Assembly (NCBI GenBank): GCA_016934415.1
Contig: JAFGSW010000052.1
Coordinates: 1-24,641 of the forward strand
Length of the DNA stretch: 24,641 bases
Direction: 5' to 3'
Source: Spirochaetales bacterium
GTDB taxonomy: Bacteria > Spirochaetota > Spirochaetia > SZUA-6 > RPPD01
Part shown: piece after piece, positions 2 through 23,405 of the stretch
Layout: each line of letters opens with the position of its first letter
Position numbering within the stretch: the first letter of the stretch is position 1
Notes under the pieces: generated by a model
What the model saw: the letters and a program-made list of their open reading frames with translations, nothing else
Databases searched by the model: none
What the model was told of the DNA's origin: nothing
Program-made: the position numbers and the translations under genes

Positions 2-772
2 GCGGAGAACCAGGCCACCAACACGGCCGTGTACCAGAACGGCGGCTGCGGCGGGTCCAACAGCGAAATGATGCACTGCAACGGCTATATCGATTTCGGG
101 ACCATGTCCGGCGGCAGCTCGTCCTCGAGCTCGTCGAGCAGCTCATCCAGCAGTTCTTCAAGCAGCTCTTCGAGCAGTTCATCCTCCAGCTCTTCAAGCA
201 GCGGCGGCGGAACGAAATACATCACCTCGACGATCGAAGTGAACGGCGGTACGTATGACGGCGGCGGCCAGAGAATCATCGCCCAGGGGATGGGCGACGG
301 CAGCCAGGACGAAGACCAAAAGCCGATCTTCAAGGTCACGAACGGCACGGTCAAAAACGTCCGCATCGCCGCCCCGGGCTGCGACGGCATTCACGTGTAC
401 GGCAACTGCCGGATTGAAAACGTCGTCTGGGAAGACGTCGGCGAAGACGCCCTCACCGTGAAGGGCTCGGGAACCACCACCGTCTCCGGAGGCTCGGCGA
501 GCAGTGCCTCGGACAAAATCTTCCAACTCAACCAACAGTGCACCTTCACGGTGGAGAATTTCACGGCTTCCACGTTCGGCTGCTTCGTGCGGCAGAACGG
601 CGGGACGGACTTCGCCTGCACGATCTACGTGAACAACGTCACCCTGAACAATGGAAGTTACGGGGTCAGGACCGATTCCTCATCGACGAGAATCTATTAC
701 CGCAATGTGAACGCGTCCAATGTCAGCACATTGTGGAAAGTCCCGAACAGCTCACAGGTTCAGCCATACTAG
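2..772 (+). CDS. 5'-partial secreted pectate lyase, family PL3, with N-terminal carbohydrate-binding module and poly-Ser linker
   Basis: The frame is open from the window edge. The N-terminus (AENQATNTAVYQNGGCGGSNSEMMHCNGYIDFG) is about 93% identical at the DNA level to the CBM copy at 4357–4470. A 25-residue Ser run follows, then a parallel beta-helix region with PL3-like motifs (KPIFKV, GTVKNV, GCDGIHVYG, WEDVGEDALTVKG). Stop is TAG at 770–772. Confidence 0.7.
   Translation, partial: AENQATNTAVYQNGGCGGSNSEMMHCNGYIDFGTMSGGSSSSSSSSSSSSSSSSSSSSSSSSSSSSSGGGTKYITSTIEVNGGTYDGGGQRIIAQGMGDGSQDEDQKPIFKVTNGTVKNVRIAAPGCDGIHVYGNCRIENVVWEDVGEDALTVKGSGTTTVSGGSASSASDKIFQLNQQCTFTVENFTASTFGCFVRQNGGTDFACTIYVNNVTLNNGSYGVRTDSSSTRIYYRNVNASNVSTLWKVPNSSQVQPY
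112..200. repeat. Low-complexity poly-Ser linker coding repeat (mixed TCG/AGC/TCC/AGT codons)
   Basis: The linker SSSSSSSSSSSSSSSSSSSSSSSSS sits between the CBM and the catalytic domain. Its antisense reading gives the spurious ELLEELLDELL ORF at 85..390. Confidence 0.8.
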
Positions 773-2714: not shown

Positions 2715-2743
2715 TTGACAATCCTCGACCTAATAATAAAATC
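2715..2743 (+). promoter_or_regulatory. Possible sigma70-like promoter (TTGACA-16-TAAAAT) in AT-rich intergenic region
   Basis: TTGACA lies at 2715–2720 and TAAAAT at 2737–2742. The next start codon is about 300 nt downstream, which implies a long leader. Confidence 0.2.
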
Positions 2744-3045: not shown

Positions 3046-4218
3046 ATGTTTAAAAAATTCCTAATTCTCCTGGCGCTCACCACTCTGGCGGTATTTGCAT
3101 GTCTACCGCCGAGCGTCAGCAACAATGACAATGGCGGCAGCAGGGCGACCAGCACGATCGTCGTGCGCGCCACAGGCGTCTCCGGCAGCGAGCAGATTCG
3201 GCTGACAGTCGGCGGCTCCACCGTCCAGACGTGGACGCTCACCACCGGCATGGCCAACTACACGGCCACCACCGACAACATCGGCGCGGTCCGCGTCGAG
3301 TTCTTCAACGACGGAAGCGGCCGGGACGTACAGGTGGACTACATCACCATGAACGGGACCACGCTGCAGGCCGAGGACCAGGCCGCCAACACCGGCTCCT
3401 GGAACTCGAGCGCGAACTCCTGCGGCGGCGTGAAATCCGAAATGTTGTACTGCAACGGCTCTATCGATTTCGGCAATGTATCCGGCGGCAGCTCTTCCAG
3501 CAGTTCCTCGAGCAGTTCGTCCTCAAGCTCATCAACCGGCAGCTCATCGAGCAGTTCCTCAGGCGGCACCTCAGTCTCCATCGCATGCGGCGGCAATTCG
3601 GCCGTGGGGAGTTTCCAAGCCGACCAGTACTACTCCGGCGGCAATACCTACCGCAACAGTAATACGATCAACGTCTCGCAAATCACCAGCAATCCGCCTC
3701 CGGCCGCACTCTTCAACAATGAGCGTTACGGCTCGACGACCTACACGATCCCCGGCTTCAGCGCGGGAAGCTCGTGTAGCGTGACGCTGTACTTCGCCGA
3801 GACCTATCACTCCTCGTCGGGGCAGCGGTCTTTCAATGTGTCCATCAATGGCAACCAAGTTCTCTCGAACTTCGACATCTACTCGGCCGCCGGCGGCCAA
3901 AACAAGGCCATCGCCCGGTCGTTCACGACCTCGGCCAACTCAAGCGGCCAAGTTGTGATCCAGTTAACAACCGTCAATGAGAATGCGAAGATCAACGGCA
4001 TCGCCGTACAGTCCGGCGGTGGCTCATCCTCCAGTTCTTCGAGCAGCTCGTCCAGCAGTTCGTCCAGCAGCTCATCCAGTACTTCGTCCAGCAGTTCGTC
4101 GACCGGTTCATCGAGTAGCTCGTCCGGCGGTGCCAACACCATCGTCGTCCGGGCCAAAGGCACGGCGGGCACGGAGTCCGTCAGCCTGAAAGTCGACTCG
4201 ACGACCGTCGGCACCTAG
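3046..4218 (+). CDS. Lipoprotein with CBM-X, poly-Ser linker, malectin/CBM57-like domain, poly-Ser linker and the first third of a second CBM-X (N-terminal portion of the interrupted CE15 gene)
   Basis: ATG at 3046 has AAGGGGG 7 nt upstream. The signal peptide carries a lipobox-like LAVFAC. The malectin-like segment is IACGGNSAVGSFQADQYY...YTIPGF...VTLYFAETYHSSSGQRSFNVSINGNQVLSNFDIYSAAGG...INGIAVQ. It ends at TAG. Confidence 0.6.
   Translation: MFKKFLILLALTTLAVFACLPPSVSNNDNGGSRATSTIVVRATGVSGSEQIRLTVGGSTVQTWTLTTGMANYTATTDNIGAVRVEFFNDGSGRDVQVDYITMNGTTLQAEDQAANTGSWNSSANSCGGVKSEMLYCNGSIDFGNVSGGSSSSSSSSSSSSSSSTGSSSSSSSGGTSVSIACGGNSAVGSFQADQYYSGGNTYRNSNTINVSQITSNPPPAALFNNERYGSTTYTIPGFSAGSSCSVTLYFAETYHSSSGQRSFNVSINGNQVLSNFDIYSAAGGQNKAIARSFTTSANSSGQVVIQLTTVNENAKINGIAVQSGGGSSSSSSSSSSSSSSSSSSSTSSSSSSTGSSSSSSGGANTIVVRAKGTAGTESVSLKVDSTTVGT
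3487..3570. repeat. Poly-Ser linker low-complexity repeat
   Basis: Region SSSSSSSSSSSSSSSSTGSSSSSSSGG, with an antisense spurious ELLEELL ORF. Confidence 0.8.
4021..4125. repeat. Poly-Ser linker low-complexity repeat
   Basis: About 35 consecutive Ser/Thr residues encoded with mixed Ser codons. Confidence 0.8.
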
Positions 4219-4233
4219 ACGCTCTCCACCTCC

Positions 4234-5685
4234 ATGACCAACTACACCTACTCGACCAATGCCAGTTCCGGCAACATCACCTTCAACTTCACGAATGACG
4301 CGTCCGGCCGCGACGTGCAGTGCGATTACATCACGGTGAACGGATCGACCCGCCAGGCCGAGAACCAAGCCACCAACACGGCCGTCTATCAGAACGGCGG
4401 CTGCGGCGGGTCCAATAGCGAAATGATGCACTGTAACGGCTACATCGATTTCGGAACCATTTCCGGCGGCGGCAGCTCGTCCTCAAGCTCATCAAGCAGC
4501 TCATCGAGTAGCTCGTCCAGCAGTTCATCCAGCAGCTCCTCCTCCAGCAGCAGCGGTTCGTGTAATATACCGTCAATGCCTTCGTATTCGTCTCTGCCGT
4601 CCAATTCCTATCTCCCCGATCCCTTTACGTTCATGAACGGCTCGCGCATGACCAGCAAAAGTCAATGGAGTTGTCGTCGCGCGGAGATAGCCGCGTTGGC
4701 CCAGGAATTTGAATTCGGCCAGAAACCGGCGGCACCTTCCAATGTCACGGGTTCCTACAGCAACAACAACATCACGGTCAATGTCACCGAAAACGGCAAA
4801 TCGATTTCATTCTCGTGTTCGATCACCTATCCTAGTTCAGGGACCAAGCCTTATCCCGCCATCATCGGGGTCGGAGGCGATTCGTTGAACACTTCGGCTA
4901 TCACGCAGATGGGAGTCGCCCTCATTAATTTCCCCAACAACGACATTGCGGCCCAGAACGATAGCGGTTCCCGTGGCCAGGGCAAGTTCTACACAATTTA
5001 CGGCAGCAACCACTCGGCCGGCGCGTTGATCGCCTGGGCATGGGGCGTCGACTGCTTGATCACCGCCCTTGAAAAGACCTCGGCGGCCAACATCAATCCG
5101 GCCAAACTCGGCGTCACCGGGTGCTCCCGCAACGGGAAAGGCGCTTTGGCCGTCGGCGCTTTCTGCGAACGAATCGCACTCACCATACCCCAGGAATCGG
5201 GAGCCGGCGGCGCGGCCAGCTGGCGCGTTTCCGATTGGCAAAAATCCCAGGGTCAGAACGTCCAGACGCTTTCGCAGATCGTGACGGAGAACTGCTGGTT
5301 CAGATCGAATTTCTCTCAGTTCGGCGGCACGGCCAACAAACTCCCGTTCGATCATCACATGATCGCAGCGCTCTGCGCACCGCGAGCCCTGCTCTTCATA
5401 GAAAACACACAAATGGAGTGGCTGGGAAACGTGAGCACGTGGACGACCGGCAATGCGGCCCATTACGTATGGGAAGCGCTCGGCGTGCCGGACAAGATGG
5501 GTTTCTCACAAGCCGGCCATTCCGACCATTGCGGTTTCCCTTCTTCCCAGCAGCCTGAGGTGACCGCGTACATCCAGAAATTCCTGCTCGGCGGCAGCGG
5601 CAACACGACCGTTATGAAAACGGACGGGAATCTGAATTTCGACAAGGCCAAATGGGTCAATTGGTCGGTTCTGTCCTTGAATTAA
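4234..5685 (+). CDS. CE15 glucuronoyl esterase catalytic domain preceded by the remainder of CBM-X and a poly-Ser linker (C-terminal portion of the interrupted gene)
   Basis: Carries the CE15 consensus GVTGCSRNGKGAL (G-C-S-R-x-G, nucleophile Ser), followed by PRALLFIEN and GHSDHCGF. There is no signal peptide after the ATG at 4234. Stop is TAA. Confidence 0.65.
   Translation: MTNYTYSTNASSGNITFNFTNDASGRDVQCDYITVNGSTRQAENQATNTAVYQNGGCGGSNSEMMHCNGYIDFGTISGGGSSSSSSSSSSSSSSSSSSSSSSSSSSSGSCNIPSMPSYSSLPSNSYLPDPFTFMNGSRMTSKSQWSCRRAEIAALAQEFEFGQKPAAPSNVTGSYSNNNITVNVTENGKSISFSCSITYPSSGTKPYPAIIGVGGDSLNTSAITQMGVALINFPNNDIAAQNDSGSRGQGKFYTIYGSNHSAGALIAWAWGVDCLITALEKTSAANINPAKLGVTGCSRNGKGALAVGAFCERIALTIPQESGAGGAASWRVSDWQKSQGQNVQTLSQIVTENCWFRSNFSQFGGTANKLPFDHHMIAALCAPRALLFIENTQMEWLGNVSTWTTGNAAHYVWEALGVPDKMGFSQAGHSDHCGFPSSQQPEVTAYIQKFLLGGSGNTTVMKTDGNLNFDKAKWVNWSVLSLN
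4474..4557. repeat. Poly-Ser linker low-complexity repeat
   Basis: A run of about 27 Ser residues before the CE15 domain. Confidence 0.8.
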
Positions 5686-5705: not shown

Positions 5706-5769
5706 TCGCCGGGGATGGGAAGAACAGCGGCGGCGACACCGCGTTCGAATATCCCCGGCGCTTTTTTAT
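5706..5769. terminator. Candidate bidirectional terminator between convergent genes
   Basis: Inverted repeat gccggggat ... atccccggc with T-runs on both sides (cgcttttttat on + and aaaaaaattttt on the other side). Confidence 0.35.
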
Positions 5770-7817: not shown

Positions 7818-7847
7818 TTGACCATTACGCTCCATCGTGGTAATAAT
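7818..7847 (+). promoter_or_regulatory. Candidate sigma70-like promoter TTGACC-17/18-TAATAA(T) for the ECF sigma gene
   Basis: TTGACC lies at 7818–7823 and TAATAA/AATAAT at 7841–7847. The TTG used as ORF-track start at 7818 lies in the -35 box, which favours the ATG at 7857 as the start. Confidence 0.25.
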
Positions 7848-7856
7848 CTTTTCAGC

Positions 7857-8396
7857 ATGCCTTCCGTAAAAAACGTCCAGGATTTCATGAGCCTCTATCA
7901 CTCGTACTATCCGAAAATTTACGGCTTCTTTTATCGCGACTGCCTGCACCGCGAGACGGCGGAGGACCTCGCCGCCACCACCTTTACGAAAGCCCTCCAA
8001 TTCATCCAGCTCAAAAAAAAGGAAATCATCAATTTCAATGCCTGGATTTATCGAATTGCAACAAATGAGCTGTATTCGTATCTTAAACAATTGAGGAGAA
8101 GGCGGGCACGTATCGTCGAAAACACCGAAAAGCACCTCATCGACGGACTGCCGGACGAGACGCAGCGGCCGGACGAGTGCGCGGACTTTTGGCCGGTAAG
8201 GGATGCAGTCGCGCAGCTTCCTCCGGAAAAGCGGGTGCTGATCGAGATGCACTTTTTCGAAAAGATGGATTACAGCGAGATGGCGGAAGCGCTTAAATGC
8301 AAGGAAGCCACCCTGCGCTCGAAAATCCACCGAACTCTCAAATTACTGCGGACGTTCTTGAACAAGGGGGATCGCGAACGGGAGAACGGGCCATGA
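7857..8396 (+). CDS. ECF (sigma-70 family, group 4) RNA polymerase sigma factor
   Basis: Region-2-like segment is YYPKIYGFFYRDCLHRETAEDLAATTFTKAL and region-4-like segment is LPPEKRVLIEMHFFEKMDYSEMAEALKCKEATLRSKIHRTL. The TGA stop overlaps the next start (ATGA at 8393–8396). The start could instead be the TTG at 7818. Confidence 0.8.
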   Translation: MPSVKNVQDFMSLYHSYYPKIYGFFYRDCLHRETAEDLAATTFTKALQFIQLKKKEIINFNAWIYRIATNELYSYLKQLRRRRARIVENTEKHLIDGLPDETQRPDECADFWPVRDAVAQLPPEKRVLIEMHFFEKMDYSEMAEALKCKEATLRSKIHRTLKLLRTFLNKGDRERENGP

Positions 8397-10048
8397 AAAA
8401 GAACGAGAACGACAGACTCTACGAGCGGCTGAAAAACCTCATGGTGCCCGAAATCGCCAACCCGGAGCACGAACGCGCCTTGCGTGAACGATTGGAAAAG
8501 ATGATCGCCGAACAGGAGAGGCCCAGACCCGCCATCCGTCCTTTTTCCGTGGTCGCCGGCGCTTTGGCGGCCGCGGCCGCCGCGGCGGTCGCTCTTGTCC
8601 TCGTTCTCCGCCCGCCGGGCGGCGCGGCCGTCGACCTGGCGGCCGACGAGAGGAGCGCGGTCGCCGCCCCGGCGGTACTGAGTTTGAGCGGCGGCGATGT
8701 GACCGCGCAGTCGGGCGGCGTCACCGAGCGGCTCGCGCTCGGAAGCGCGCTCAAACCCGGCGATACGGTCTCCGTTTCCGGACACGCGCCCTGCGAGTTC
8801 CAGATCGACGAAAGAGTATTTCTCCGCCTCGATCCTTCTTCTGCATTTGTGTTCCGGGGTGCTTGGTCCGCCGCGGATGGCACTCATGTTTCCGTGGAGT
8901 TGCGATCGGGCACCGCCGTTGTGCATGACCTGAATACAGACGGTTATCTGACTGTGTATACGCCCTTCGCGGTTTTTCAGACCGTGGGTACGGCGTTTCT
9001 GGTGAGGGTGGAACACGGCCGGTCCGCCGCTTTGGCGGTCGGTGAAGGCCGCGTGCGAGTCCTTTCCCTTCCCCCGCGAACCGCAATCCTCAGAGAGGGT
9101 GTTGGAGCGGGCCGGTCGGTATCGGTGGATTCAAGCGGCGCCCTCACGGACCGGGGCGCCGTTTCCGAGGAGGATGGGCTGAAGATCGACGAGATTCGAA
9201 AAATCGCTTTTCTTCCCGATCCGTCACGGAGACGTTCGGTGCGCGTCACGGTGGTAAGTGAACCGGCTGACGCCACCATCGCCGTCGACGGCGTTCCGCG
9301 CGGGCGGGGGACGCTCTTTTTCCTGGCCGCACCGGGTGTCCGTTATACGGTGACGGCCTCCGGTCCGGGCCGTGAAACTCAAAGCCGGACCGAATCCTTT
9401 CAGGAAGATAAAACGATCGCCTTCCGGCTCAAGCGAACGATCGGCCCGCCGAAAACGCCCGAGCGAACTTCCGTTCCCGAAACACGCCGTGAGATCGAAG
9501 CGAGTCCCGTTCCCGGCCGGGACGGAGGAGCGGTCGTTCTGCCGACGGCCTCACCGGAACTCACCGGCCGCGTCTCCGATTGGCACGGCCTGGCTCCGGT
9601 GATTGCGGATCCTTCAGGCGACATGAACGCCTCCGACGCGGGCACGGACATTTCCGACGTTTTCCTGGCGCACGACGAAACGTTCCTCTTCTTCGGGATC
9701 AAGTTCGAGAACGGAACCCTCGATCCAGGCGTCCAGCCCGAGATCGCACTCTCCCTCGCTCCCGCTTCCGGTCGGCGGGTGGAGCTCTCGGGCCGGACCG
9801 CAGACAAGAAATGGCTGGCCGAAGTTAAAATCTTCAAAGACGGCGCACTTGCGTCCACTTCCGACGCGGCAGGTAAAATCGTCGTCGGCGACGGTTTCCT
9901 GGAAATGAAACTCCCTCTTGAGGCCGTCCTCTCGGCCGGCACGCCGGGCGAGATTTACAAAGCCAAAGCCACCCTTACGATCCAGAAATACGGCCGACTC
10001 CGGGTTATCGCCGATGAGACGGAAGCGCGGACGGTTCTCTTTTACTAG
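8393..10048 (+). CDS. Membrane-spanning anti-sigma factor with periplasmic FecR-like region, PEGA domain and C-terminal domain of unknown function
   Basis: Translationally coupled to the sigma gene. A single TM helix (FSVVAGALAAAAAAAVALVLVL) follows about 60 cytoplasmic residues. PEGA-like segment is RVTVVSEPADATIAVDGVPRGRGTLFFLAAPGVRYTVTASGPG. About 170 C-terminal residues are unassigned. Stop is TAG. Confidence 0.7.
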   Translation: MKKNENDRLYERLKNLMVPEIANPEHERALRERLEKMIAEQERPRPAIRPFSVVAGALAAAAAAAVALVLVLRPPGGAAVDLAADERSAVAAPAVLSLSGGDVTAQSGGVTERLALGSALKPGDTVSVSGHAPCEFQIDERVFLRLDPSSAFVFRGAWSAADGTHVSVELRSGTAVVHDLNTDGYLTVYTPFAVFQTVGTAFLVRVEHGRSAALAVGEGRVRVLSLPPRTAILREGVGAGRSVSVDSSGALTDRGAVSEEDGLKIDEIRKIAFLPDPSRRRSVRVTVVSEPADATIAVDGVPRGRGTLFFLAAPGVRYTVTASGPGRETQSRTESFQEDKTIAFRLKRTIGPPKTPERTSVPETRREIEASPVPGRDGGAVVLPTASPELTGRVSDWHGLAPVIADPSGDMNASDAGTDISDVFLAHDETFLFFGIKFENGTLDPGVQPEIALSLAPASGRRVELSGRTADKKWLAEVKIFKDGALASTSDAAGKIVVGDGFLEMKLPLEAVLSAGTPGEIYKAKATLTIQKYGRLRVIADETEARTVLFY

Positions 10049-12589: not shown

Positions 12590-13786
12590 ATGAAAACCTA
12601 CGAAGAGATCAATGCCAAGATCGAAGCAAAGAAAGCGGTGGTTCTCACCGCCGAGGAGATCATCGACTATGTTGAAAAAAAGGGCCTGCGGGCCGCCGCC
12701 GAAGAGGTCGACGTGGTCACCACGGCCACCTTCGGGCCGATGTGCTCGTCGGGCTGTTTCCTCAACTTCGGGCACTCGAGCCCGCGCATCCGGATCTCCG
12801 AGGCCTGGCTCGACGACGTGCGCGCCTACTGCGGCATCGCGGCGGTGGACGTGTACCTCGGCGCCACCGAGCTCCGACAGGGAGACCCGGCCAATCTCTA
12901 CCATCCCGGCGAATTCCGATTCGGCGGCGCGCACGTCATCGAAAAGCTCGTGCGGGGCGAGAAGGTCCAGCTCTTCGGCCTGTCCTACGGCACCGACTGC
13001 TACCCCCGCCGCGAGATCCGCACCTGGTTCACGCTCAAGGACTTAAACCAGGCGATCATGACCAATCCCCGCAACTGCTACCAGAATTACAACGTGGCCG
13101 TCAATTCGTCCGATCGGACCATCTACACCTACCTGGGTCAGCTCAAGCCCGGCCTTAAAAACGCCACCTACTGTTCGGCGGGCCAGCTGTCGCCGCTCCT
13201 GAACGATCCGTTCTACGAAACGATCGGCGTGGGCACGCGGGTGTGGCTCGCCGGCGCGCAGGGGATCGTCTACGGCGAGGGAACCCAGCACGCGGGCGCC
13301 GTGGACCGCGGCGGGAACGGAGTGCCCGTGGAGGGCGGAGGCACACTCGCCCTCACCGCCGACATGAAGGAGATGGACCCGCGCTGGGTGCGCGCGGTGA
13401 GCCTGACCGGCTACGGAGTGTCCCTTTCCCTCGGCGTCGGCATTCCCATCCCCGTCCTCAACAAGGAGATTCTCAAGCGCGCCGCCGTCCGGGACCGTGA
13501 CATCCTGGCCACCGTCGTCGATTACGCGACCGACTACCCGAACCGGACGGGAAAAACTCTCGGGCGAGTGACGTACGAGGAGCTCCGTTCGGGCGAGATC
13601 AGCCTGGGTGGGAAAAAAGTGGAAGCGGGCTCCCTCTCCTCGTACAGGTACGCCCTGGAAATCGCCGAGCTCCTCAAGGCTGAAATCGAAGCCGGCCGCT
13701 TCACCGTTTCCCGGCCCGTGAGGCGGTTGCCGGTCGACCGGAGTTTCCGGCCGCTCGCCATCAAGGAAAGCGAACGCTATGGCTGA
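12590..13786 (+). CDS. Homocysteine biosynthesis protein, COG1900/DUF39 family (L-aspartate-semialdehyde sulfurtransferase-like)
   Basis: About 400 aa. Conserved Cys/Gly-rich blocks (TATFGPMCSSGCFLNFGHS, GTDCYPRREI, ATYCSAGQLSPLLNDPFYETIGVGTRVWLAGAQG) match the archaeal/anaerobe COG1900a proteins. The 8-bp overlap with the next gene links them to the NIL-ferredoxin. Confidence 0.75.
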   Translation: MKTYEEINAKIEAKKAVVLTAEEIIDYVEKKGLRAAAEEVDVVTTATFGPMCSSGCFLNFGHSSPRIRISEAWLDDVRAYCGIAAVDVYLGATELRQGDPANLYHPGEFRFGGAHVIEKLVRGEKVQLFGLSYGTDCYPRREIRTWFTLKDLNQAIMTNPRNCYQNYNVAVNSSDRTIYTYLGQLKPGLKNATYCSAGQLSPLLNDPFYETIGVGTRVWLAGAQGIVYGEGTQHAGAVDRGGNGVPVEGGGTLALTADMKEMDPRWVRAVSLTGYGVSLSLGVGIPIPVLNKEILKRAAVRDRDILATVVDYATDYPNRTGKTLGRVTYEELRSGEISLGGKKVEAGSLSSYRYALEIAELLKAEIEAGRFTVSRPVRRLPVDRSFRPLAIKESERYG

Positions 13787-14201
13787 AACCGCCTTCACCA
13801 AAAAATATTTCCTCTATTTTCCCAAGTGTGAAACGGAAAAACCGATCGTCTACCACCTCGTCAAGGATTACAACCTGATGGTGAATATTTTCCGCGCCAA
13901 GGTGACGCCCGAGGAGGAGGGCTATCTCGTCCTCGATCTCACCGGCACGGCGGGCGACATTGCGCGCGGGCTTGAGTTCGTCCGCACCTTCAACGTGACG
14001 GTGAACGAGCAGTCGATCGGGCTGCGCTGGGACGCCGAGCGCTGCACCCATTGCGGGAACTGCCTCCCCCACTGCCCGACCAGGGCGCTTGACTTTAAAG
14101 ACCGCACCACGAGGGAAGTCAGGTTCGACGCGGCAGCGTGCATCGAGTGCTTAAGCTGCGTCGCCAACTGCCCCTTTTCCGCCTGTGCCTCGGTCTTTTA
14201 G
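13779..14201 (+). CDS. NIL-domain 4Fe-4S ferredoxin partner of COG1900 (homocysteine biosynthesis)
   Basis: AAGGAAAG RBS precedes the ATG. The N-terminal NIL-like domain is followed by two ferredoxin cluster motifs (CTHCGNCLPHCP and CIECLSCVANCP). Stop is TAG. Confidence 0.8.
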   Translation: MAETAFTKKYFLYFPKCETEKPIVYHLVKDYNLMVNIFRAKVTPEEEGYLVLDLTGTAGDIARGLEFVRTFNVTVNEQSIGLRWDAERCTHCGNCLPHCPTRALDFKDRTTREVRFDAAACIECLSCVANCPFSACASVF

Positions 14202-14214
14202 CGGGCGTCGGGTC

Positions 14215-14967
14215 ATGCAACCGAGGCGCGCCTATCGGCGGTTCGACTATCGCGGCGCCCGCTACCGGATCTCCTCGTCCCACCACACTCTCATCACGGA
14301 TGAGCTCAAACGCCTGCGGACCCTGCTCGAGATATACCGCGAAACCGATCCGGCCTTCGCGCACTCGCTTGAGCCCGTGCGGGTGAAGCCGTATGCTCCC
14401 GAAATCGCGCGCCTCATGGCCGCTGCCGGGGAAGCGGCGGGTGTCGGGCCGATGGCGGCCGTGGCGGGCGCCTTCGCCGAGGCCGCGGCGCGCGCCGCGC
14501 TCGCGGCCGGCGCGCGGGAGGCCGTCGTCGAAAACGGCGGCGATATCTTCATCGCGTCGCCGGAGGAAGTGGTGGTGGGAATCTACGCGCGCGGCAATCC
14601 GCTTTCGCGCCGCCTCGCCTTCCGCGTCGCGGGCGCCGACACGCCCCTCGCCGTCTGCTCCTCGTCCGGAGTCATGGGCCATTCCTTGAGCCGGGGAACA
14701 TGCGACCTGGCCGTCGTCGTCGCCCGGGACGCCGCCTTGGCAGACGCGGCCGCCACCCGCGCCGCCAACCTGGTGAAAACCAAGGCCGACGTGGATAAGG
14801 CGCTGAAGGTGGTGGAGGAAATCAAAGGCGTGTCCGGCGCGTTCATCCTGATGGAAGACGCCGTCGGTATGACCGGCATGCTCCCCGAGATAGTCAAACA
14901 CGAGGATCCCCGGCTCCTTGAAAAAATCCCCGCCGATGAAAGCTGGGATGGATTGATTTCATATTGA
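14215..14967 (+). CDS. UPF0280/ApbE-like protein (COG2122-type), third component associated with sulfide-dependent Cys/Hcy biosynthesis
   Basis: About 250 aa with a Gly/Ala-rich GPMAAVAGAFAEAAARAA core. Assigned by size, composition and the conserved gene neighbourhood with COG1900 and NIL-Fd. A GTG at 14185 would be an alternative start overlapping the upstream gene. Stop is TGA. Confidence 0.55.
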   Translation: MQPRRAYRRFDYRGARYRISSSHHTLITDELKRLRTLLEIYRETDPAFAHSLEPVRVKPYAPEIARLMAAAGEAAGVGPMAAVAGAFAEAAARAALAAGAREAVVENGGDIFIASPEEVVVGIYARGNPLSRRLAFRVAGADTPLAVCSSSGVMGHSLSRGTCDLAVVVARDAALADAAATRAANLVKTKADVDKALKVVEEIKGVSGAFILMEDAVGMTGMLPEIVKHEDPRLLEKIPADESWDGLISY

Positions 14968-18301: not shown

Positions 18302-19401
18302 AAATCACCGAACAGGCGAAGAAATTCATTCATAATCTCCCTTCATTCCGATTCATCATCGACTTTAAATCGAATCCGCTTACTCTTTTTCTCAATGTCC
18401 TCTTTTTCATTGGTGGAGTCCTTGTAGAAATCGCCATATATCCGAAGGTTCCGATCTTTTACCTTCTCTGCATCGGTTTGGGCGCTCTCGTCGCCGCCGG
18501 CGCCATCGCCGTCCTACCCAAATGGACGACCTCCATCAAGGTGCTGGCCCTGGGGTGGCTCGCCGCTTACTTCCTGCTCGACACCACCTACGTCCCCGTA
18601 CTCGCCGTCACCTCCTTCGGCCTCCTCTTCTCAGCGTGCTTCCAGCTCGCAGACCATTGGGAACGAGCCATCATCCTCCGCTTCGGGAAGTTCTCGCGAA
18701 TCAAGGGCCCGGGATTTTTCCTCATCTGGCCCGTCATGGAGCGGATCGCCGATTACGTCGACACCCGCATCCGGTCCACCGATTTCTCCGCGGAAACCAC
18801 CCTCACCCACGATACCGTGCCGGTCAATGTCGACGCCATCGCCTTCTGGATGATCTGGGACTCGAAAAAGGCGATCCTCGAGCTCGAGAACTTTCTCGAC
18901 GCGGTCATCCTCTCCGCCCAGACCGCGCTCCGCGACGCGATCGGCAAGCACGACCTGGCCACGCTCCTTTCCGAGCGCGACCGCCTGGGACGCGAAATTC
19001 AGGAGATCCTCGAGGCCAAGACATCGCCCTGGGGCATCACCATCCTCTCCATCGAGATCCGGGAGATCATCATCCCCAAGGAGCTCGAGGACGCGATGAG
19101 CAAGCGCGCCCAGGCCGAGCGCGAACGCCAGTCGCGCGTCATTCTCGGCACCGCCGAGGCGGAAATCGCGGAGAAATTCGCGCAGGCCGCGGAACGCTAC
19201 AAGAACAACCCCACCGCGCTTCATTTGCGCGCCATGAACATGATCTATGAAGGACTGAAAAAGAACGGCTCCATCATGCTCGTTCCCTCGTCCGCATTGG
19301 AAACGATGTCGCTGGGGACCGTGCTGGGCGCGACCGCCCTGGAAAAAGCCGAAAAGGCCGAAACCGGCAAAGAAAAGGAGAATTCCGATGGTCAAGGTTA
19401 A
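18298..19401 (+). CDS. SPFH/band-7 (stomatin/prohibitin-like) protein with about 110-aa N-terminal polytopic membrane domain
   Basis: AAGGAGGAG RBS precedes the ATG. Four predicted TM helices come before the SPFH core (RAIILRFGKFSRIKGPGFFLIWPVMERIADYVDTRIRS...). A coiled-coil Ala/Glu-rich tail follows (AQAERERQSRVILGTAEAEIAEKFAQAAERYK). Confidence 0.8.
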   Translation: MKITEQAKKFIHNLPSFRFIIDFKSNPLTLFLNVLFFIGGVLVEIAIYPKVPIFYLLCIGLGALVAAGAIAVLPKWTTSIKVLALGWLAAYFLLDTTYVPVLAVTSFGLLFSACFQLADHWERAIILRFGKFSRIKGPGFFLIWPVMERIADYVDTRIRSTDFSAETTLTHDTVPVNVDAIAFWMIWDSKKAILELENFLDAVILSAQTALRDAIGKHDLATLLSERDRLGREIQEILEAKTSPWGITILSIEIREIIIPKELEDAMSKRAQAERERQSRVILGTAEAEIAEKFAQAAERYKNNPTALHLRAMNMIYEGLKKNGSIMLVPSSALETMSLGTVLGATALEKAEKAETGKEKENSDGQG

Positions 19402-20068
19402 TCACGTCGTCAAGAATTACACGATCGGCAAGCTCGAGGTGCACGCCCTGCGCGGGGTGGATCTCGAAATCAAGGACGGCGAGTTCATGTCGATCGCCGG
19501 CCCCTCCGGGTCGGGGAAAACCACGCTCTTGAATCTCATCGGCTGCCTCGACGCCTGCACGGGGGGGGACATCCTCATCGACGGCGAGTCAATCGGGGGC
19601 AAGAAGCGCGACGAGCGCGCCCTCCTGCGGCGGCGGAAGATCGGTTTCGTCTTCCAATCGTTCAACCTCATTCCGGTGCTCACCGCCTACGAGAACGTCG
19701 CCTTCGCCCTTTCCCTTTTGAAGACGGGGCCGGGCGAAACCAGGGAGCGGACGATGAAGATCCTCGAGGAGGTGGGGCTCACGGGGCTGGAGAAACGCTT
19801 TCCCAACGAGCTCTCGGGCGGGCAGCAGCAGCGGGTGGCCGTGGCCCGCGCCCTGGTGAAAAAGCCGACGCTCGTGCTGGCCGACGAGCCGACCGCCAAC
19901 CTCGATTCGGACACCGGCCGGGAGATCCTCAAGCTCATGGAAGACCTGAACCGGACGCACGGCACCACCTTCGTGTTCTCCACCCACGATCCCATGGTCA
20001 TGGACTTCGCTCACCGGCTCGTGTTGCTTCACGACGGGGCGATCGTGTCGGACAAGGCGAAAAAGTAA
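19388..20068 (+). CDS. ABC transporter ATP-binding protein, LolD/MacB/FtsE-like
   Basis: Walker A is GPSGSGKTT, the signature is LSGGQQQRVAVARAL, Walker B is LVLADEPTANLD, and the H-loop is STHD. It overlaps the upstream gene by 14 bp. Confidence 0.9.
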   Translation: MVKVNHVVKNYTIGKLEVHALRGVDLEIKDGEFMSIAGPSGSGKTTLLNLIGCLDACTGGDILIDGESIGGKKRDERALLRRRKIGFVFQSFNLIPVLTAYENVAFALSLLKTGPGETRERTMKILEEVGLTGLEKRFPNELSGGQQQRVAVARALVKKPTLVLADEPTANLDSDTGREILKLMEDLNRTHGTTFVFSTHDPMVMDFAHRLVLLHDGAIVSDKAKK

Positions 20069-20080
20069 AGGAGGCGAAGA

Positions 20081-21340
20081 ATGGGTTTCATCATCACCCT
20101 GGCGTTCAAGAACCTGTTCCGGTACCGCCGGCGGACGATCATCACCGCGATCGCCATCGCTACCGGGGTATCGATGTATATCTTCATCGACGGCTGGCTG
20201 CAGGGCGCCCAAGCCGAATCGGTCCGGAACCTTGTAAAATTCGAGACCGGCTCGGCGCGCGTCGTGAACACCACGTATTGGGAGCAGAAGGATTTCCTCC
20301 TGCCGAAATATGACATTCCCGACCCGGCGCCGGCCGAAGCCGCGCTCGAGAAGGCGGGCTATACCGTGGCGCCGCGCGTCACGATCTTCGCCGAGGCGTC
20401 CAAGACCGGCGGCGCGGGCGAGGCGTTCACGCTGCAGATCGCGGGCATCGACCCGGCGCGCGATGGGAAAATCTTCGACTTCGCCAACGCGCTGACGCCG
20501 AAAGGCGCCGTCTACCTCACCGCCGGCCGCTCGGAGATCATGCTCGGGAGCAATGCGGCCGACCGGCTCGGCGTCGTGCTCGACGACTCGGTGCGGCTCA
20601 CCACCCGCACCAGGGACGGCGTCTGGACGAGCCTCGAGACGCGCGTCGTCGCGATTCTCTCGACGCCCGATCCGATCGTCAACAACATCATGGGGTTCGT
20701 GCCGCTCGATGTGCTCCAAAACGCCCTGCAGATGGGGAATGGGGTCACCGACATCGTCATCGGCTTTCCCGAGTGGCTCGACCCGGACAAGGAAACGGCC
20801 GCCATCAACGCTCTCCTCGCCCCGCTGCCCGGCAGCTCCGACTACGTCGCCAAGAGCTTCAACGATCTCGCCCCCGAATTCGGCCAGATCGCCCAGTCGA
20901 AGAGCGGCGGCACGAAGATTATCCTTTTCCTCATCTTCATCATCGCCGCCATCGGCATCTCCAACACGGTGCTCATGGCGGTGTACGAGCGCGTCCGCGA
21001 AATCGGCATGATGCGCGCCTTGGGCATGAAGAACGGCGCGGTCATGTGGTGCTTCATCGTCGAGGCGTTCGGCATCGGCCTCGTCGGCGCGCTGTTCGGC
21101 GTCATACTCGGCGTGTTCGCCGAACTCTACATGGTGAACATCGGCATCGACCTCACCCCCATGCTCGAGAACATGGGCAATATCGGCTATCGGATTCTTG
21201 GGGTGTCAAAATCCCTATGGAATCCGGATACGATCGTTACCGCGGCGATCGTCAGCATCATTTTTTCCGGCATTATGGCCATTCTGCCCGCGCGCCGCGC
21301 CCTGAAAAAAGAAATCACCGAGTGCCTGCGCGTCAAATGA
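20081..21340 (+). CDS. ABC transporter permease, FtsX/LolC-E/MacB-type (4 TM with large periplasmic loop)
   Basis: AAAGGAGG RBS. TM1 is TIITAIAIATGVSMYIFI. A roughly 230-aa periplasmic domain is followed by three C-terminal TM helices with the conserved VYERVREIGMMRALGM motif. Confidence 0.85.
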   Translation: MGFIITLAFKNLFRYRRRTIITAIAIATGVSMYIFIDGWLQGAQAESVRNLVKFETGSARVVNTTYWEQKDFLLPKYDIPDPAPAEAALEKAGYTVAPRVTIFAEASKTGGAGEAFTLQIAGIDPARDGKIFDFANALTPKGAVYLTAGRSEIMLGSNAADRLGVVLDDSVRLTTRTRDGVWTSLETRVVAILSTPDPIVNNIMGFVPLDVLQNALQMGNGVTDIVIGFPEWLDPDKETAAINALLAPLPGSSDYVAKSFNDLAPEFGQIAQSKSGGTKIILFLIFIIAAIGISNTVLMAVYERVREIGMMRALGMKNGAVMWCFIVEAFGIGLVGALFGVILGVFAELYMVNIGIDLTPMLENMGNIGYRILGVSKSLWNPDTIVTAAIVSIIFSGIMAILPARRALKKEITECLRVK

Positions 21341-21374
21341 CGCGGGGATCGGGTGAAAGAAAAGGAGAGGACCG

Positions 21375-22637
21375 ATGAAAATCGCGAGTATCGCGTTACG
21401 CAATATTTTCAGGAACAAGTGGCGGAGTTTCCTCAGCCTGTCGGCCATCGCGCTGGTCACTTTCACCATCGTCTTCCTGTTCGCCATCATGGAGGGCATG
21501 AAACTCGACCAGCGGACCACGATGGCGAAATTCGCCACGGGCGACGCCCGGATCAGAAACGCGGGGTTTGAGAAATACCAGTTCATCGCCCCCGAGGAAT
21601 TCATGATTCCGGATTACGACAAGGCCATTGCCGCGCTCCGCGCCGATCCGGCGGTCGAGACGGCCGTAGGACGCTTTCAGTTCCCCGCCCAGGTGGCCGT
21701 GAAGTGGGAGGTGATTTTTGGGATGAATTGGCCCGGCGAGACGAACAGCACCCTGGCGACCGGCCTTGATTTCAGCGACGAAAAGAGTTTCTTTTCACTG
21801 GCGTCCTACCTCGTTCCCGGCGGCCGGCTTCCCGGCCAAGGAGAAATCCTCGTTTCCGGCGGCTTTGCCAAGAAATTCAACCTCAAGCCAGGCGATTCGT
21901 TGATATTATATTCGGGCGGCACCTGGGGGCAACAAGACGCAGTACTAAAGATTTCAGGCATCGTCGCTCTCCCGCTCGCCCAACTCAATGTAAATTCGAT
22001 ATACATGGCGCTGTCGGCGGCCCAGAACCTGCTCCTGCGCCAAGGCCAGGCCGAGGAAATTCTCATACGCTTCAAACCGGGCGTCGCGGTCGGCGATGCC
22101 GTGGCCGCCGTACGGACCGCGCTCGCGCGAAACGGATTCAAAGATCTGGACGTGAAGCCCTGGAACGAGATCGGCAATGCCGGCACCTTCATAGATCTTG
22201 CGTCGAAAATTTACTATTTCATGGCATTTTTCTTCTTCATCCTCGGCACGACGGTTATCATCAACACCACCATGATGGTGATCTACGAGCGCATGCGCGA
22301 GATCGGAACGCTGCGGGCCATGGGCATGACCGGCCCGGAGATGATCCGATTGTTTTTTATGGAAGCCTTTTTCATCGGCGCGGCCGCGGCCTTCGTCGGC
22401 GTCATTCTCGGTTCGGCGCTGATACTCCCCTTGAGCGTTTCCGGCGTCGACTTCGGGAAATTAATCGACCTGGGGAAAACCAATCTCGACATCTCCGACG
22501 TCATCTACCCGCAGCTCAATCTGGTGTCTACCCTATTCGTCTTCTTCTATTCGACGGCCGTGTCGTCGCTCATCTCCTTTATACCGACGCGCCGGGCGGC
22601 CAAGATCGAGCCGGTTGAGGCGCTTCGGTCGATATAA
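21375..22637 (+). CDS. ABC transporter permease, FtsX/LolC-E-type, second paralogue
   Basis: AAAGGAGAGG RBS. Same topology as the first permease, with the IYERMREIGTLRAMGM motif. The pair of distinct permeases resembles a LolC/LolE heterodimer. Confidence 0.85.
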   Translation: MKIASIALRNIFRNKWRSFLSLSAIALVTFTIVFLFAIMEGMKLDQRTTMAKFATGDARIRNAGFEKYQFIAPEEFMIPDYDKAIAALRADPAVETAVGRFQFPAQVAVKWEVIFGMNWPGETNSTLATGLDFSDEKSFFSLASYLVPGGRLPGQGEILVSGGFAKKFNLKPGDSLILYSGGTWGQQDAVLKISGIVALPLAQLNVNSIYMALSAAQNLLLRQGQAEEILIRFKPGVAVGDAVAAVRTALARNGFKDLDVKPWNEIGNAGTFIDLASKIYYFMAFFFFILGTTVIINTTMMVIYERMREIGTLRAMGMTGPEMIRLFFMEAFFIGAAAAFVGVILGSALILPLSVSGVDFGKLIDLGKTNLDISDVIYPQLNLVSTLFVFFYSTAVSSLISFIPTRRAAKIEPVEALRSI

Positions 22638-22661
22638 ATCGATTTTATTATGGAGGAATAT

Positions 22662-23405
22662 ATGACGATAAAAAGATCGATCTGGCTGGCGCTTCTCGTG
22701 GTATTGCCTGCGACGGTTTTCGCCCAAATGACGGCGGAGGAAGTCGTGCGGCGGTTGGAAAAAAACGAGGTGTACACGAGCTCCAAGAGCTCGGGAAAGC
22801 TTCTCATCACCAACCAATTCGGGACCAAGACGAAAACCTTTACCGCGGCCTCTCAGGGCGCCGAAAAGCTTCTCCTGGAGTTCACCAACAAGGAGGAACG
22901 GGGCCAGAAGATCCTGCGCCTGAACGACCAGATCTTCGTCTATTACCCGCGTTCCAACAGCGTGGTCAGCATGCAGGGCGGGGCGCTCAAGGACAGCATC
23001 TTCGGTTCGGACTTCACCTATGAGGACCTCACGGGCGAGAAGAGCATCCTCAACCTGTACAAGGTCGAATTCGCCCAACCGTCCACGGAAACGGTCGACG
23101 GCGTTCAGTGCTACCATTTAAGGCTCACGGGCATCACTTCCGTCGCCTATCCCTTCCAGGAGCTCTGGGTGGAGACCGCGCGTTTGGTCCGGCGCAAGGC
23201 CGTATTTTTCTCGCTCACCCGCGAGCCGCTCAAGGAAATGGAAGTAAAGGAGACGAAGGAAGTTTCCGGGAAGATCTTCCCCTCCCGTTTCGTCATCACC
23301 GATCTCATCAAGAAAAATTCCTCGACCGAGTTCGCGCTGGACTCGATCCAGATCAACCCGCGCCTCGACGCCCGCCAGTTTTCCCTGGAGAGGTTGAAAT
23401 TTTGA
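22662..23405 (+). CDS. Periplasmic LolA-like (outer-membrane lipoprotein-sorting/carrier-like) protein
   Basis: GGAGG RBS lies 6 nt before the ATG at 22662 (an alternative ATG is at 22650). Signal peptide is MTIKRSIWLALLVVLPATVFAQ. About 225 mature residues are predicted to be beta-rich. The family call is tentative and rests on size, the signal peptide and placement next to a Lol-like ABC. Confidence 0.45.
   Translation: MTIKRSIWLALLVVLPATVFAQMTAEEVVRRLEKNEVYTSSKSSGKLLITNQFGTKTKTFTAASQGAEKLLLEFTNKEERGQKILRLNDQIFVYYPRSNSVVSMQGGALKDSIFGSDFTYEDLTGEKSILNLYKVEFAQPSTETVDGVQCYHLRLTGITSVAYPFQELWVETARLVRRKAVFFSLTREPLKEMEVKETKEVSGKIFPSRFVITDLIKKNSSTEFALDSIQINPRLDARQFSLERLKF

Follow-up and report, generated by a model that had tools for sequence, protein, structure and literature searches.

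The 24,641-nt contig JAFGSW010000052.1 of a Spirochaetales bacterium (assembly GCA_016934415.1), which was analysed over its whole length and is called the window below, carries on its forward strand a gene at positions 3046–5685 that is interrupted by a single in-frame amber codon. This TAG (4216–4218, codon 391) takes the place of a conserved Trp codon, TGG, and we think it probable, at about 70%, that it arose by a recent TGG-to-TAG nonsense mutation at Trp391 of what was one gene for a modular glucuronoyl esterase lipoprotein. In the course of events that we propose, a single ancestral gene would have encoded a secreted, lipid-anchored, multi-modular glucuronoyl esterase, and the change would be very recent and would have given rise either to a newly forming pseudogene or to a loss-of-function allele that segregates in the population sampled. 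Of the three explanations that the initial annotation left open, a recent mutation ranks as the most likely, a sequencing error as the second and readthrough as the least likely.

The two open reading frames (ORFs) of this region, 3046–4218 and 4234–5685, lie in a common frame (4234 − 3046 = 1188 = 396 codons), and the translation of 3046–5685 comprises 880 codons with codon 391 as the sole internal stop, that is, 879 sense codons when codon 391 is read as Trp. We made the domain search against Pfam with Trp put at this codon, and the predicted 879-aa lipoprotein then consists, in this order, of a signal peptide with lipobox, a CBM60 module, a malectin (CBM57-type) module, a second CBM60 module and a CE15 glucuronoyl esterase domain. 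The signal peptide (aa 1–19, 3046–3102) carries the lipobox MFKKFLILLALTTLAVFA directly before Cys19, and in MFKKFLILLALTTLAVFAC we recognise a basic n-region, a hydrophobic h-region and a lipobox ending in Cys, a reading made by eye rather than with a dedicated predictor; the lipobox fits the PROSITE PS51257-type pattern. The first CBM60 module (aa 34–146, 3145–3483) is intact and has its Trp62 codon, TGG, at 3229–3231. It is followed by the malectin module (aa 177–322, 3574–4011; PF11721, E = 2.9 × 10-21), by the second CBM60 module (aa 362–474, 4129–4467), which contains the stop, and by the CE15 domain (aa 506–879, 4561–5682), which covers profile positions 1–231 of the 231 of PF22244 (E = 2.6 × 10-98, 328.9 bits, cut-off 27). 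The CBM60 modules, each of about 113 aa, match PF16841 in two stretches (E = 4.9 × 10-20, 72.2 bits, cut-off 28.2), and the two copies are identical at 61 of 111 residues. Poly-Ser linkers join the modules, and the repeats that encode them are 12-nt-periodic.

Within this gene the two CBM60 copies differ in a simple way at the site of interruption, where copy 1 has acgTGGacg (TVQTWTLTT) against accTAGacg (TVGT*TLST) in copy 2. Because TGG is the sole codon for Trp, the TAG is one G-to-A transition away from its ancestor, in the context CCTGG to CCTAG. The aligned column is close to invariant: among 149 CBM60 modules that we extracted from the 120 best homologues it holds W in 143, F in 3, R in 1, I in 1 and a gap in 1, and the TAG also aligns with the W of TVQTWTLTT in the solved vCBM60 (2xfd/2xhh, E = 1.7 × 10-38). 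Copy 1 has the conserved core Trp of a complete module, and copy 2 has the TAG at that column; the structural role of this Trp is read from its conservation only. Both halves of the split module match the family profile, so that, as judged from the sequence, a single stop within CBM60 module 2 is not a chance pattern. As in a nonsense pseudogene, the in-frame stop lies inside a conserved domain and homologous coding sequence goes on in frame behind it.

The four-letter word CTAG, which the change creates, is rare in the window, with only 8 occurrences in the whole 24.6 kb (about half of what a maximal-order Markov model predicts and roughly a tenth of what base composition would give), and 4 of these 8 overlap a TAG stop codon, the internal TAG included. 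We also considered a 5-methylcytosine hot spot (Dcm, CCWGG) as the source of the change, as the ancestral site would have been CCTGG and deamination on the bottom strand would yield exactly CCTAG. This origin is speculative, and the sequences give it no support: CCWGG is not depleted and CTWGG and CCWAG are not in excess, either in the window or in its relatives (ratios 0.9–1.2).

Homologues with a comparable layout are encoded as single proteins. P0009 and P0010 each consist of a signal peptide, a CBM60 module that retains the Trp, and a CE15 domain. The more informative relative is P0003, a JGI metagenome protein of 749 aa that is encoded by one intact ORF and begins with a near-identical lipoprotein signal, MLKKFLVLFALSALAVFSC; it is 70% identical to the product of the window gene over the malectin module and 76% over CE15. 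The related genome that encodes it has a homocysteine-biosynthesis (HcyBio) protein 90% identical to that of the window, and P0003 lies there near BNR-repeat, zinc-ribbon, DinB and HcyBio genes, which the neighbourhood in the window has in common with it. By sequence and neighbourhood, P0003 is to be regarded as the intact positional homologue of the interrupted gene. In P0003 two BACON modules replace the two CBM60 modules, with the consequence that codon 391 has no counterpart there. The initial annotation had proposed that the two ORFs share a frame, that the TAG sits within the second copy of a module of about 110 aa where a single G-to-A change separates it from the TGG of the first, and that the ancestral product was one lipoprotein of about 880 aa; the reading frame, the alignments and the single-protein homologues P0009, P0010 and P0003 bear these proposals out.

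The comparison of 3046–5685 with positions 10001–12250 of L018, a locus of this related genome, shows a common signal peptide, malectin module and CE15 domain with differing inserts (two CBM60 modules against two BACON modules). This indicates that modules have probably been swapped at Ser/Thr-rich linkers between the window gene and its L018 homologue. The gene order around the two is rearranged. L018 further contains, at 14356–14916 (also found in L014 at 343–903), a 186-aa ORF annotated as 'Malectin', which starts with MLAVFSC, the tail of a P0003-type signal peptide, is 76% identical to the malectin module of the window and closes with a basic, unrelated stretch. This ORF has the look of what remains of a paralogous malectin-CE15 gene. 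A Y1-transposase fragment of 50 aa lies at 4799–4951 of the same locus.

Downstream of the stop the CE15 domain shows no decay. It aligns with the fungal esterase Cip2 (3pic) at E = 3.5 × 10-128 and 54% identity, and its motifs GCSRNG (5119–5136, aa 692), PQESG (5188–5202, aa 715) and DHCGFP (5524–5541, aa 827) align with the same motifs of Cip2; we take these motifs to carry the catalytic triad residues (Ser, an acidic residue and His). When conserved columns were compared across 31 CE15 domains, leaving out one domain at a time, the window domain deviated at 3 of the 93 columns conserved at 90% or more, which places it in the mid-range of the 30 intact homologues (range 0–22). The corresponding counts for the CBM60 modules are 5 of 50 for the second and 6 of 50 for the intact first copy. 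The conserved-column test, together with a CBM60 paralogue inside the window, was used in place of the ratio of non-synonymous to synonymous rates (dN/dS) of CE15 against its homologues, since the closest homologue is only 80% identical at the protein level and synonymous sites would saturate.

The paralogue in question is the C-terminal half of a third CBM60 module, which is joined to a pectate lyase and truncated at the edge of the window (2–115, forward strand). It corresponds to the post-stop half of the second module (4357–4470), with 92% identity at the DNA level. The two segments differ at 9 positions, 8 of them synonymous and 1 non-synonymous (dS 0.45, dN 0.011, dN/dS 0.025), and the probability of finding at most 1 non-synonymous change under neutrality is 2.5 × 10-5. 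The segment behind the TAG has therefore been translated and kept under selection essentially since the copies diverged. There is also no second stop across the 488 codons downstream of the TAG, and neutral divergence since the inactivation must therefore be less than roughly 5–6%.

The layout of expression signals is that of a single transcription unit, since a promoter-like site lies upstream of the gene, none lies within it, and a hairpin follows its end. The upstream site (TTGACA-16-TAAAAT, 2715–2742, forward strand) matches 11 of 12 consensus positions, and consensus match is its only basis; no promoter-like site was found inside 3046–5685. A Shine-Dalgarno-like GGGGG stands 6 nt before the ATG at 3046, and the only terminator-like hairpin of the whole unit, followed by a run of six U, is located 3' of the final TAA (5707–5766, forward strand; −35.5 kcal/mol, z = −4.49). 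The first ATG after the stop, at 4234–4236, is 16 nt downstream of it and opens the second ORF, ORF2, which begins MTNYTYSTNASSG, has no hydrophobic signal and starts within a beta-sandwich module; no Shine-Dalgarno sequence precedes this ATG (the upstream sequence is CCTAGACGCTCTCCACCTCC).

That two genuine genes lie here, one for a binding lipoprotein and one for a separate esterase, or that TAG has been reassigned throughout the lineage to Trp or pyrrolysine, seems to us highly improbable, and beyond the existence of two ORFs nothing speaks for either. For two genes the boundary would have to split a CBM60 fold, the second gene would lack both a signal peptide and a Shine-Dalgarno sequence where most genes of the window have AAGGAGG-like sites, and the interior of the whole gene shows no promoter-like site. 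Under a nonsense mutation, with the standard code in the organism, translation would end at codon 391, and we infer the fate of the products from this: a lipoprotein precursor of 390 aa with the first CBM60, the malectin module and only the first 29 residues of the second CBM60 would be made, and the esterase domain would not. Any product of reinitiation at ORF2 would, without a signal peptide, remain in the cytoplasm, out of reach of the lignin-carbohydrate esters on which the enzyme acts, and would there probably serve no purpose.

The code itself can be examined in the window, where TAG terminates 4 of the 21 plausible genes (the ORFs ending at 772, 10048, 10760 and 14201), and in related contigs, where it terminates 5 of 23. 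In L017, the closest relative, the NIL-ferredoxin orthologue has the same last residue (...SVF), and its stop codon is TGA in place of the TAG of the window; TAG must thus be a true terminator here, a result that speaks directly against reassignment. No other gene of the window contains an internal stop, TAG or other, and TGG is used for Trp about 90 times, which is likewise hard to reconcile with recoding. The two further suggestions of the initial annotation, that the downstream CE15 domain with its GCSRNG motif is undecayed and lacks a secretion signal of its own, and that TAG is a genuine stop elsewhere in the window, have thus both held up.

Functional readthrough or amber suppression at a low level, which would yield mostly a lipoprotein with binding modules only and some full-length esterase, is a very unlikely explanation. 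Nothing speaks for it positively; an intact downstream frame and the A that follows the TAG would simply permit it. Neither a tRNA with a CUA anticodon nor pyrrolysine machinery turned up in the window and 10 related loci; the window has a tRNA-Met as its sole tRNA, and this is also the one hit that Rfam gave there. The fold of the 116 nt that follow the TAG is no more stable than that of shuffled sequences (z = −0.08), so that neither a stimulatory RNA structure nor an Rfam element marks the site. The stop, moreover, interrupts a folded module, at a Trp position that hardly varies; the relatives encode Trp at the site, and thus the TAG is not a conserved feature as a programmed readthrough signal would be. 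Near-cognate decoding of UAG inserts Gln, Tyr or Lys, not Trp. Still more doubtful is a regulated two-product gene in which the amber codon leaks through a suppressor tRNA or through an unusually weak UAG-A context. If the codon were read through, the tryptic peptide across it would be TVGT-X-TLSTSMTNYTYSTNASSGNITFNFTNDASGR. On the opposite strand, two antisense ORFs cross this region (3879–4214 and 4108–4431), neither with a significant family match.

There remains an error of sequencing, consensus or assembly, with TGG in the real genome and an intact gene, and we regard this as unlikely although it is the strongest of the rivals. It would account for a lesion of a single base without other damage, in a gene set amid repeated CBM60 modules and 12-nt-periodic poly-Ser linkers. 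Several observations weigh against a real mutation at this point. The complete absence of decay downstream is also what a consensus error would leave behind. The window starts within a near-identical CBM60 module, which suggests an assembly break in repeated sequence, as the error explanation would expect, and next to such repeats the mapping of reads or the polishing may be less dependable. Independent copies of the allele were not found: an exact-protein look-up of four window genes in a collection of 15 billion proteins gave no match, and scans of genome and metagenome contigs gave no self match, no strain-level relative and no synteny. The best protein matches over the CE15 part reach 72–80% identity, and the nearest genome, L017 (HcyBio 95% identical), is represented by a 4.8-kb contig without the esterase gene.

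Against an error, and in favour of a real allele, we note that the sequence around the TAG is unique by k-mers and only 72–75% identical to copy 1. The one close paralogue that was seen codes for the same protein but for one residue, and a mis-join or mis-mapped reads that encode Trp would not make a TAG. The rest of the window, with about 20 other genes, is free of stops and of evident frameshifts, which argues for a consensus of good quality and a low error rate. About 4% of random substitutions yield stops, and for this gene the stop-creating share is 3.5–3.8%; gene for gene, genuine nonsense alleles greatly outnumber the substitution errors that survive in a polished consensus, those that happen to make a stop included. 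We therefore infer that the TAG is present in the DNA and not merely in the consensus.

For annotation, the region is better described as one interrupted CBM60-malectin-CBM60-CE15 lipoprotein gene (a pseudogene or internal-stop allele) than as two proteins, and CE15 activity should not be credited to the predicted metabolism of this organism until base 4217 has been verified. If the TAG is real, it catches gene loss in the act, within a family of modular plant-cell-wall enzymes that reshuffles quickly.

The lesion itself is ordinary, a classic case of an amber mutation that hits a Trp codon, and a single nonsense substitution in an accessory carbohydrate-active enzyme gene is commonplace. It differs in nothing by kind from the nonsense pseudogenes and loss-of-function alleles of other bacteria, in which the same single transition from TGG to a stop, in a gene that is otherwise intact and was formerly under selection, removes a downstream catalytic domain under the standard code. 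The protein, by its sequence, is a new member of known families, namely Cip2-type CE15, CBM60 and malectin/CBM57. With Cip2-type CE15 enzymes (Trichoderma reesei Cip2, 3pic; also 8b48 and 4g4g) it shares the full-length PF22244 match and the G-C-S-R-N-G, Q-E-S-G and H-C motifs, but the window esterase is bacterial, anchored as a lipoprotein and, as written, not translated, and its CE15 domain stands behind CBM60, malectin and CBM60 modules where the Cip2 type has a fungal CBM1. The domain thus falls within a Pfam family described as 'fungal' glucuronyl esterase (PF22244), and it resembles Cip2 more closely than it does most bacterial CE15 enzymes of characterised structure, those of the OtCE15A type matching only at E = 1 × 10-17. 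Both CBM60 modules align end to end with vCBM60 (2xfd/2xhh), a calcium-dependent xylan- and galactan-binding CBM60, including its Cys pair and TWTLT strand, and copy 2 aligns with residues 2–112 of the 112; copy 2 differs in having the TAG for the strand Trp and Tyr at the position of the Trp in the GVWANN of vCBM60.

Elsewhere in the window, positions 1–772 hold the truncated third CBM60 module (2–115), a poly-Ser linker and the pectate lyase (PF03211). A gene for a sigma factor of the extracytoplasmic function type (7818–8396) and one for a FecR-like anti-sigma protein (8297–10048) adjoin the carbohydrate-active enzyme genes, and this pair may regulate polysaccharide utilisation; the two listed ORFs overlap by about 100 nt, and the true start of the FecR-like protein is probably further downstream than listed. 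At 12590–14201 lies a homocysteine-biosynthesis pair (HcyBio/DUF39 and a NIL-4Fe4S ferredoxin) whose order is conserved in relatives, and the best named matches of the relatives are metagenome-assembled genomes of Spirochaetaceae, Bacteroidales and Phycisphaerae at 74–77%. Finally, a set of LolA-like and MacB-type lipoprotein-sorting genes at 19388–23405 suggests that the host is diderm.

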